Source of the DNA: Escherichia coli
GTDB lineage: Bacteria > Pseudomonadota > Gammaproteobacteria > Enterobacterales > Enterobacteriaceae
Direction: 5' to 3' (one strand)
DNA length: 64,000 nucleotides
NCBI RefSeq assembly: GCF_003334785.1
Contig: NZ_QOWV01000001.1
This document shows, piece by piece, positions 3,413-34,023 of the stretch (position 1 is the first letter of the stretch; each line of letters opens with the position of its first letter). A program made the translations under genes and the position numbers. Below the pieces are notes generated by a model. That model saw only the letters and a program-made list of their open reading frames with translations. It had not been told where the DNA came from and did no database searches.

Positions 3413-3793
3413 TTACTGCGTGGTACCGTCGGTTTTGGTATCGACATCATTATTGATGCCATCACCGGTTTGTACCTTTTTATTGATATCCGGACAGCGA
3501 CCATCTTTGCACATGGTGTTCTTGTGCTCTTCATCTTTGGTCATTCCGTCATTGTTCATTGAAGAACCATCCGAATGCAGCATTGTGCCGCCAGAACCGG
3601 TATTTACCCCGTTATTGTCGACGTTATTTGGCGCGACATTTTCACGGGCGTCAGGGGCTACCTGGCCCGCATCAGCTGCGGCGTTTGCCTGGCCGTTATT
3701 AGTTTGCGCTCCGCTATCGGCAGCCAGTGCGGCACCGCTGGCAAGGCTTAGAGTGGCAGTCAGAAATAATGTGGCCAGTTTTGTCATTTTCAT
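3413..3793 (-). CDS. ybgS: Secreted low-complexity protein YbgS
   Basis: 126-aa ORF with a signal peptide ([24 protein letters not shown]) and an N/G/D/T-rich mature region. Confidence 0.85.
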
Positions 3794-27733: not shown

Positions 27734-27738
27734 AATCG

Positions 27739-27778
27739 ACTTGTAAACCAAATTGAAAAGATTTAGGTTTACAAGTCT
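27739..27778. promoter_or_regulatory. bio operator (BirA binding site) with divergent bio promoters
   Basis: 40-bp imperfect palindrome ttgtaaacc...ggtttacaa between bioA and bioB. Confidence 0.8.
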
Positions 27779-30011: not shown

Positions 30012-30753
30012 TAAACAAGCCATTGCAGCGGCATTTGGTCGGGCAGCCGCACACTATGAGCAACATGCAGATCTACAGCGCCAGAGTGCTGACGCCTTAC
30101 TGGCAATGCTTCCACAGCGTAAATACACCCACGTACTGGACGCGGGTTGTGGACCTGGCTGGATGAGCCGCCACTGGCGGGAACGTCACGCGCAGGTGAC
30201 GGCCTTAGATCTCTCGCCGCCAATGCTTGTTCAGGCACGCCAGAAGGATGCCGCAGACCATTATCTGGCGGGAGATATCGAATCCCTGCCGTTAGCGACT
30301 GCGACGTTCGATCTTGCATGGAGCAATCTCGCAGTGCAGTGGTGCGGTAATTTATCCACGGCACTCCGCGAGCTGTATCGGGTGGTGCGCCCCAAAGGCG
30401 TGGTCGCGTTTACCACGCTGGTGCAGGGATCGTTACCCGAACTACATCAGGCGTGGCAGGCGGTGGACGAGCGTCCGCATGCTAATCGCTTTTTACCGCC
30501 AGATGAAATCGAACAGTCGCTGAACGGCGTGCATTATCAACATCATATTCAGCCCATCACGCTGTGGTTTGATGATGCGCTCAGTGCCATGCGTTCGCTG
30601 AAAGGCATCGGTGCCACGCATCTTCATGAAGGGCGCGACCCGCGAATATTAACGCGTTCGCAGTTGCAGCGATTGCAACTGGCCTGGCCGCAACAGCAGG
30701 GGCGATATCCTCTGACGTATCATCTTTTTTTGGGAGTGATTGCTCGTGAGTAA
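29998..30753 (+). CDS. bioC: Malonyl-ACP O-methyltransferase
   Basis: Start placed at [15 protein letters not shown]; SAM methyltransferase motif LDAGCGPG; 251 aa. Confidence 0.92.
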
Positions 30754-31423
30754 ACGTTATTTTGTCACCGGAACGGATACCGAAGTGGGGAAAACTGTCG
30801 CCAGTTGTGCACTTTTACAAGCCGCAAAGGCAGCAGGCTACCGGACGGCAGGTTATAAACCGGTCGCCTCTGGCAGCGAAAAGACCCCGGAAGGTTTACG
30901 CAATAGCGACGCGCTGGCGTTACAGCGCAACAGCAGCCTGCAGCTGGATTACGCAACAGTAAATCCTTACACCTTCGCAGAACCCACTTCGCCGCACATC
31001 ATCAGCGCGCAAGAGGGCAGACCGATAGAATCATTGGTAATGAGCGCCGGATTACGCGCGCTTGAACAACAGGCTGACTGGGTGTTAGTGGAAGGTGCTG
31101 GCGGCTGGTTTACGCCGCTTTCTGACACTTTCACTTTTGCAGATTGGGTAACACAGGAACAACTGCCGGTGATACTGGTAGTTGGTGTGAAACTCGGCTG
31201 TATTAATCACGCGATGTTGACTGCACAGGTAATACAACACGCCGGACTGACTCTGGCGGGTTGGGTGGCGAACGATGTTACGCCTCCGGGAAAACGTCAC
31301 GCTGAATATATGACCACGCTCACCCGCATGATTCCCGCGCCGCTGCTGGGAGAGATCCCCTGGCTTGCAGAAAATCCAGAAAATGCGGCAACCGGAAAGT
31401 ACATAAACCTTGCCTTGTTGTAG
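30746..31423 (+). CDS. bioD: Dethiobiotin synthetase
   Basis: GTG start giving [17 protein letters not shown] (P-loop); 225 aa. Confidence 0.92.
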
Positions 31424-31582
31424 CCATTCTGTATTTGGTTAAATTGCGAGCGAGATCGCGTCTTCGATTGACTGCAATTTAACCAATTAAATTCTAAAAT
31501 AATCACGAAAAAAATTTTACTTCCGCCTCATGCGGCGAATGTGGGAATTGCCCAGGCGGCGGGGGATAGGGGCTGGAGACAG

Positions 31583-31605
31583 TTATCCACTATTCCTGTG
31601 GATAA
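31583..31605. promoter_or_regulatory. Inverted pair of DnaA-box-like motifs upstream of uvrB
   Basis: ttatccact and tgtggataa (both matching TTATNCACA) in head-to-head orientation. Confidence 0.6.
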
Positions 31606-31907
31606 CCATGTGTATTAGAGTTAGAAAACACGAGGCAAGCGAGAGAATACGCGGCTTGCACGCGAATTGGCGTTAAAGACGGCTCAAAGAAATATCTTTT
31701 ATTTTTTAACTGGTTAGATAAATGCAATGGCAGTCACTGAACAGGCATCTCTTGCCATAAAACTGTCATCACTCATCTTGACAAATGTTAAAAAAGCCGT
31801 TGCTTTGGGGATAACCCGGTAAGGCCGGAGTTTTATCTCGCCACAGAGTAAATTTTGCTCATGATTGACAGCGGAGTTTACGCTGTATCAGAAATATTAT
31901 GGTGATG

Positions 31908-31927
31908 AACTGTTTTTTTATCCAGTA
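31908..31927. promoter_or_regulatory. LexA (SOS) box of uvrB
   Basis: aactgtttttttatccagta contains CTG-N10-CAG about 75 bp upstream of uvrB. Confidence 0.8.
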
Positions 31928-32001
31928 TAATTTGTTGGCATAATTAAGTACGACGAGTAAAATTACATACCTGCCCGCCCAACTCCTTCAGGTAGCGACT
32001 C

Positions 32002-34023
<2,022 letters not shown>

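Follow-up and report, generated by a model that had tools for sequence, protein, structure and literature searches.

What is a perfect inverted repeat doing immediately downstream of bioD, the last gene of bioBFCD, and does it act as RNA, as DNA or not at all? The question comes from a preliminary description of the stretch of 64,000 nucleotides of Escherichia coli DNA analysed here (the window), which reported a perfect 13-bp repeat with its left arm at 31436-31448 and a gap of 25 nt, and proposed for it either a protein-binding palindrome or an atypical terminator. An inverted-repeat search found the repeat, its exact complementarity and the right arm as described; the left arm, however, starts at 31435 and the gap is 26 nt (Table 1). 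The repeat begins 11 nt past the bioD stop codon on the sense strand and corresponds to positions 812,959-813,010 of MG1655 (window coordinate + 781,524; sequence identical). When one mismatch is allowed it grows to 16 nt (31432-31447 and 31474-31489, 94% complementary), and in the RNA form G31448 and U31473 make a 14th pair of the stem.

Table 1. Features of the bioD-uvrB region, in window coordinates except for the ABC ATPase gene, for which the locus is named
Feature	Position	Strand	Remarks
bioD, last gene of bioBFCD	30746-31423	+	MG1655 b0778, 812270-812947
Left arm TTGGTTAAATTGC	31435-31447	+	13 nt, from inverted-repeat search
Loop between arms	31448-31473	+	26 nt; includes a GATC site and a degenerate 7/10 match to CRP-like TGTGA-N6-TCACA
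Right arm GCAATTTAACCAA	31474-31486	+	13 nt, exact reverse complement of left arm
Rest of Escherichia-specific filler	31487-31545	+	A/T-rich stretch and small polymorphic GC hairpin
DARS1 core, DnaA box I	31583-31591		overlaps uvrB p3; from alignment and literature
DARS1 core, DnaA box II	31597-31605		as box I
DARS1 core, DnaA box III	31609-31617		as box I
ABC ATPase gene of other genera	L072 3665-4387; L013 3665-4546; L020 3665-4528	-	between bioD and DARS1

No other perfect inverted repeat of at least 13 bp with a loop of 3-60 nt occurs in the window. Dinucleotide shuffles contained on average 0.16 such repeats per window, with one or more in 8% of the shuffles, and by sequence statistics alone the repeat is unusual but not wildly so. 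Lowering the length to at least 12 bp added a single short-range perfect repeat, at 27738-27777 upstream of the bio genes (12-bp arms GACTTGTAAACC and GGTTTACAAGTC, 16-nt spacer), which we identify as the BirA operator bioO. The 631-bp segment around the repeat was found in 5425 of 5426 complete E. coli genomes and is 100% identical in BL21 and many other strains. A search for the same palindrome elsewhere in the genome, one of the checks suggested in the preliminary description, found none: E. coli has a single copy of the repeat (over the 5425 genomes, the median number of places is one), and the arm motif does not recur in the 64-kb window beyond chance. Records labelled as plasmids also gave matches, each of them an E. 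coli copy at 100% identity. Six of these copies lie in records of 0.7-4.9 Mb, sizes suggestive of chromosomal DNA under a wrong label, and one lies in a record of 55.7 kb. A dispersed repeat, MITE or REP/BIME was ruled out, the element being single copy and having no relatives on real plasmids, and an Rfam search of 31200-32200 returned only a chance miRNA match (E = 0.92).

Several smaller symmetries surround the repeat. The right arm lies inside a small local palindrome, AATTTAA-CCAA-TTAAATT (31476-31493), and the 7-mer TTAAATT/AATTTAA occurs three times in alternating orientation (31439, 31476 and 31487). Further downstream there is a small GC hairpin, CCGCCTCATGCGG, at 31519-31535, with A7T4 just before it, which is highly polymorphic among E. 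coli haplotypes; read on the minus strand the hairpin is followed by AAGTAAAATTTTTTT and is loosely terminator-like, but its U-run is 8 nt from the stem.

The preliminary description gave the bioD-uvrB spacer as about 580 bp and considered this unusually long. The figure is accurate (578 bp, from the end of the bioD stop at 31423 to the uvrB start at 32002), but the premise of an unexplained spacer was mistaken, as this is the known DARS1 and uvrB p1-p3 region: DARS1 has been placed between bioD and uvrB, overlapping uvrB p3 (PMC4187155, PMC6015884, PMC6868365). The alignment of Enterobacteriaceae contains an invariant block, GTTATCCACTATTCCTGTGGATAACC-TGTG-ATTAGAGTTAGAAAAC, followed by conserved motifs down to the LexA box and uvrB p1/p2, and the strongly conserved block upstream of uvrB (31552-31836), in which identity across genera is 73-77% and some stretches are invariant, corresponds to DARS1 with the overlapping uvrB p3. 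Other invariant motifs in this block are TTGACAAATGTTAAAA (31778-31793) and the DnaA-box-like TGGGGATAACC (about 31806-31816). A small ORF at 31727-31822 with a terminator-like hairpin at 31816-31828 was considered as a hidden gene and rejected, since it is not conserved as an ORF and the conservation of the block is that of DnaA boxes and promoter-like motifs. The spacer also receives insertions: E. coli ZH063 (NZ_CP014522) has a prophage in it (junction at about 31769, with a terminase gene adjacent) that separates the DARS1 core from the uvrB p1/p2 promoters, and strain VL7S7 has an IS1 in it.

The repeat does not belong to DARS1. It lies about 97 bp from DnaA box I on the bioD side, outside the 70-bp core used in vitro (PMC6868365), and contains no DnaA box; the flank that stimulates ADP release is the one "flanking the last DnaA box" (PMC4585315), that is, on the opposite side. 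Moreover, the DnaA-box core is invariant in all the genera aligned, whereas the repeat is confined to Escherichia. The two are nevertheless joined in the standard deletion. In the DARS1::cat allele (primers of Frimodt-Moller et al. 2015; PMC4585315) the homology arms end at 31435 and start again at 31877, so that the 441 bp from 31436 to 31876 are deleted. The loss covers essentially the whole repeat, the DARS1 core and uvrB p3, together with the conserved motifs further on, and stops about 40 bp short of the LexA box.

We compared the bioD neighbourhood in 80 species to find out where the repeat came from. The genes bioD and uvrB are separated by about 580 bp in Escherichia and in Citrobacter koseri, C. 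amalonaticus and C. sedlakii. In Salmonella the separation is about 660 bp, and in most of the remaining species, among them Klebsiella, Enterobacter, Kosakonia and the C. freundii group, it is about 1,460 bp. What lengthens the long spacers is an orphan minus-strand gene for a UrtE/LivF-like ABC ATPase, convergent with bioD and overlapping its 3' end. Independent losses of this gene seem to have occurred in Escherichia, Salmonella and the C. koseri/amalonaticus/sedlakii group; in Citrobacter sp. R56 the loss is partial and a remnant is kept. The homology of E. coli to all other genera begins only at about 31543-31567; the preceding 120 bp, repeat included, align with sequence that in other genera precedes the start of the ABC gene. 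Since Escherichia lost the gene, its old 5' region now adjoins bioD. A deletion scar with remnants of ABC coding sequence was rejected, because the filler matches the upstream region and not the coding part.

With respect to Citrobacter (ATGGTGAAAATGC) the left arm shows three differences, and with respect to the GCTGTTAGCTGAT-type sequence of other genera the right arm shows about seven, which indicates that the complementarity was derived in Escherichia. E. coli, the cryptic clades, E. whittamii and E. albertii all carry the repeat; conservation in related species, another of the checks suggested beforehand and one whose failure was to count as refuting, failed outside the genus, with no comparable repeat at this place in any other genus and no consensus structure on either strand in the long-spacer genera. 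As judged from these alignments, the perfect hairpin is an Escherichia innovation on 5'-region DNA recycled after the loss of the ABC gene. The segment TGCGA-GCGAGA-TCGCG (31445-31460) is the E. coli counterpart of a CRP-like motif, TGTGA-N6-TCNCA, found in other genera immediately ahead of the ABC gene start, where it scores 8-9/10 in 28 of 58 loci as against about 3% of shuffles (L020, L021, L024 and L055 are among those that carry it in the same alignment columns). In E. coli and Citrobacter the score has fallen to 7/10, and the Klebsiella loci examined gave nothing comparable (best 6/10, at other positions). A functional CRP site in the loop was discarded because 7/10 is chance level, and so was an ancestral conserved hairpin around the CRP-like site, as other genera show chance-level repeats of 5-8 bp and an alifold energy of 0. 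As to the other lineages without the gene, in Salmonella a GC hairpin of 8 bp, followed by a U-rich tail, stands shortly past bioD, and C. koseri and C. sedlakii gained no comparable hairpin. C. amalonaticus (L010, about 3703-3785) carries a different, GC-rich inverted repeat, GTCTGCCAGACGCGC ... GCGCTCTGGCAGGC, whose arms are about 50 nt apart and bracket an A/T-rich segment after bioD (129-nt fold of -47.4 kcal/mol, z -4.2); in this lineage, too, the ABC gene was lost, and a hairpin may have been gained there independently.

RNA folding, which had also been suggested as a check, disclosed a stable structure on the plus strand (-20.9 kcal/mol, z -4.3; none of 200 shuffles was as good). The minus-strand RNA of E. 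coli K-12 folds equally well (-21.0 kcal/mol, z -6.0), and the single-stranded DNA folds reach about -14 kcal/mol on each strand. A stable sense-strand hairpin just past the last ORF is what is expected of a stabilising stem-loop. For an intrinsic terminator, on the other hand, the stem is GC-rich and of about 5-14 bp with a loop of 3-8 nt, and the repeat has 4 G-C pairs out of 13 and a 26-nt loop. The statement that the repeat is AT-rich and unlike a typical GC-rich terminator therefore held good, with four G/C per arm and a tail, UUAAAUUCU, that has no U-tract. Indeed, a U-tract 3' of the stem is absent on both strands (UUAAAUUCUAAAAUAAUC on the plus and AAUACAGAAUGG on the minus strand), and a terminator consensus scan did not call the repeat. 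Given the lack of a U-tract and the A/U-rich stem, efficient intrinsic termination is unlikely.

Within the genus the arms have changed less than their surroundings. In an alignment of 12 Escherichia sequences over 120 bp, variable columns amounted to 6/26 in the arms (4/13 left, 2/13 right), 14/26 in the loop, 11/11 in the 5' flank and 29/56 in the 3' flank. The difference between the arms and the rest of the same 120 bp (54/93) was significant (Fisher p = 0.002) and persisted when only A/T columns were considered (3/18 vs 23/50, p = 0.046); the outer six pairs of the stem did not vary. A metagenome scan anchored outside the arms yielded 88 contigs and 25 haplotypes with nearly invariant arms and with polymorphic flanks and small GC hairpin (about 31520-31540), the only arm variants being C31447T (common), the clade pair A31441G with C31475T, and the singleton T31480C. 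These comparisons suggest that the repeat is mildly constrained.

The changes that did occur in the arms fit the plus-strand RNA better than its complement. Across the genus, 97.7% of the alignment cells remain paired on the plus strand (8 G-U, 3 mismatches) as against 92.3% on the minus strand (10 mismatches), and the RNAalifold consensus energies are -15.5 and -6.8 kcal/mol, respectively. The hairpin is retained by means of G-U pairs in E. albertii (-22.1 kcal/mol) and in a cryptic clade (-28.2 kcal/mol), and the mean folding z of the equivalent 85-nt segment is -2.6 in Escherichia vs -0.6 in other genera. Independent events are few, about 7-8 for the maintenance of pairing; the tally of about 5-6 plus-compatible transitions and 2 minus-compatible ones, with 2 transversions besides, is not significant and only suggestive in this respect. 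No base pair showed a double compensatory change, that is, there is no true covariation, and in lineage L004, with three changes in the left arm, the fold is weak (z -0.8).

Published transcript maps were consulted for the 3' end of the bio mRNA. In LB and M63, Adams et al. 2021 list neither a curated 3' end on either strand nor a Rho-termination region in MG1655 8129xx-8134xx, that is, none at the repeat and none elsewhere in that interval, and the TRS tables give no 3' end at the spacer among the entries listed. This absence is a weak negative, because bio is poorly expressed in rich medium and in most of the conditions surveyed. In a long-read analysis bioBFCD and uvrB fall into a single transcription-unit cluster, which means read-through. 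A Rho-dependent terminator was rejected, since no Rho region is listed in Adams et al. 2021 and the downstream sequence is, by eye, A/U-rich and not C-rich. With regard to proteins, the uvrB p3 fragment of Wurihan et al. (-567 to -280) spans the repeat, and the sections of that paper dealing with the DnaA and LexA footprints on it describe protection only at the DnaA/LexA boxes (PMC6015884). In an RpoD genomic-SELEX table the only entry for the spacer is uvrB P1, with no H-NS flag. In these sources there is no positive evidence at the repeat for termination or protein binding. Of the two proposals made at the outset, the atypical terminator keeps some support as an RNA hairpin, but the lack of a listed 3' end and of a U-tract and the reported read-through tell against it as a terminator; the protein-binding palindrome finds none, for reasons given below.

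We tentatively favour, at somewhat less than even confidence, a 3' stem-loop of the bioBFCD mRNA that would act as a stabiliser or weak terminator and possibly buffer DARS1 and p3. Upon exit of RNA polymerase from bioD, the transcript would fold into an A/U-rich stem of 13-14 bp with a structured top of 24-26 nt. Such a hairpin would block 3'-to-5' exonucleases, defining and stabilising the 3' end of the operon, and it may cause some pausing or weak termination, which would reduce bio transcription into the DARS1 DnaA-box cluster and uvrB p3, some 100 bp downstream. The hairpin arose in the Escherichia lineage after the loss of the convergent ABC ATPase gene, its arms being built by substitutions in the leftover 5' region around the decaying CRP-like site. 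The position past the bioD stop, the stability of the fold, the constraint on the arms, the plus-strand bias and the outlying z of Escherichia argue for this explanation, as does, by analogy, the Salmonella hairpin with its U-rich tail after bioD. The missing U-tract, the lack of a listed 3' end, the read-through, the absence of covariation and the decay in L004 count against it, and so does the want of a comparable hairpin in C. koseri and C. sedlakii, where the ABC gene was likewise lost. The analysis shows a repeat that is real, stably folding, single copy and genus-specific, with the origin described and with arms better conserved than what surrounds them; that the RNA form matters, through stabilisation of the mRNA or insulation of DARS1, we infer.

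Nearly as likely as the mRNA hairpin is a neutral quasi-palindrome, produced by one or a few templated mutations in non-functional DNA left over from the loss of the ABC gene and having no function. Intra-strand template switching is the classical mechanism of quasi-palindrome correction, and the roughly ten substitutions that separate the arms from Citrobacter all create complementarity and fall mostly in the right arm, as a templated event would probably leave them. The restriction of the repeat to one genus, with homologous sequence elsewhere showing neither repeat nor consensus structure, agrees with such an origin, and so do the decayed hairpin of L004, the shuffle test (p about 0.08 per window when taken alone) and the lack of compensatory changes, listed 3' ends, further copies and, in the footprint sections cited above, any described footprint. 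The difficulty for a neutral origin lies in the arms, which vary significantly less than loop and flanks with base composition controlled, and in the persistence of the repeat since the E. albertii split while about half of the flanking columns changed; its answer would be that the arms vary little because the repeat is young and A/T-rich and the independent lineages are few.

It is unlikely that the arms are instead half-sites of a protein-binding palindrome, for example for a regulator of uvrB p3/DARS1 or for an A/T-preferring nucleoid protein. The symmetry is perfect, the arms are conserved without covariation, a pattern expected of a DNA site, and the repeat lies within the fragment usually treated as the DARS1 region or uvrB p3. 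By eye, each arm also bears a loose resemblance (8/10) to the H-NS nucleation motif, TCGATAAATT. Nonetheless, the half-site centres lie 39 bp from each other, or about 3.7 helical turns, a spacing that does not suit a simple dimer; the motif is single copy and occurs nowhere else in the window beyond chance; it is missing from other genera in which DARS1 and p3 are fully conserved; the arm substitutions lean to RNA-compatible G-U pairs; and neither the footprint sections of PMC6015884 nor the SELEX table point to binding there.

A more ambitious version of the mRNA hairpin, which we consider distinctly improbable, would make it an Escherichia-specific insulator, evolved after the loss of the intervening ABC gene, that keeps biotin-regulated read-through away from the DARS1 DnaA-reactivation complex and from uvrB p3; some phenotypes of DARS1 deletions could then stem partly from altered bio/uvrB transcription. 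Such confounding is conceivable because the standard deletion (31436-31876) takes the repeat and p3 as well; if it were true, the strong mouse-colonisation defect ascribed to DARS1 could partly reflect bio/uvrB transcription and not the loss of DnaA boxes. A function on the minus strand, as a leftover antisense transcript of the old ABC promoter or a bidirectional terminator, is the least probable of all, since the equally good fold of the K-12 minus strand and the origin of the region as the 5' region of a minus-strand gene are outweighed by the mismatches accumulated on that strand across Escherichia, its missing U-tract and the absence of minus-strand 3' ends in the spacer in Adams et al. 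2021.

Whatever the role of the repeat, the analysis has by-products in the identification of the spacer as DARS1, the history of gene loss and the caveat on the deletion allele. The locus is an example of the recycling of regulatory DNA, in which the 5' region of a lost gene, decaying CRP-like site included, was reshaped into a perfect hairpin right beside a replication-control element. As the 441-bp deletion takes the repeat and p3, mutants of the DARS1 core only would be a cleaner comparison for DnaA-reactivation phenotypes.

Among known systems, DARS1 shares with the repeat the intergenic spacer and the standard deletion that removes both, and differs from it in the position, flank and DnaA boxes described above. 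bioO is, like the repeat, an A/T-rich, perfect, short-range inverted repeat of at least 12 bp in the bio operon, but its spacer is 16 bp long, its TTGTAAACC half-sites are arranged the opposite way, and by eye the arms are unrelated except for a GGTT core; half-site sequence and arrangement rule out a BirA/bioO-like site. REP/BIME elements are likewise extragenic palindromes between convergent or tandem genes, able to stabilise the upstream mRNA, although the repeat is single copy, has no Rfam match and lacks the GC-rich REP consensus. A canonical Rho-independent terminator has in common with it a hairpin after the stop codon, and Salmonella offers an example in the corresponding position, its GC stem followed by a U-rich tail; the repeat lacks the GC-rich stem, the short loop and the U-tract, the scan was negative and read-through is reported. 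The closest likeness is to the stabilising stem-loops or weak terminators at operon ends, including processed Rho-dependent ends (Dar & Sorek 2018, PMC6061677). These share with the repeat a stable sense-strand hairpin past the last stop and, like it, are without strong-terminator features, so that read-through is possible; the repeat stands apart in being unusually A/U-rich, with a 26-nt interior, single copy, genus-specific and without a listed 3' end or Rho region. If functional, it would be at most another hairpin of this operon-end kind.
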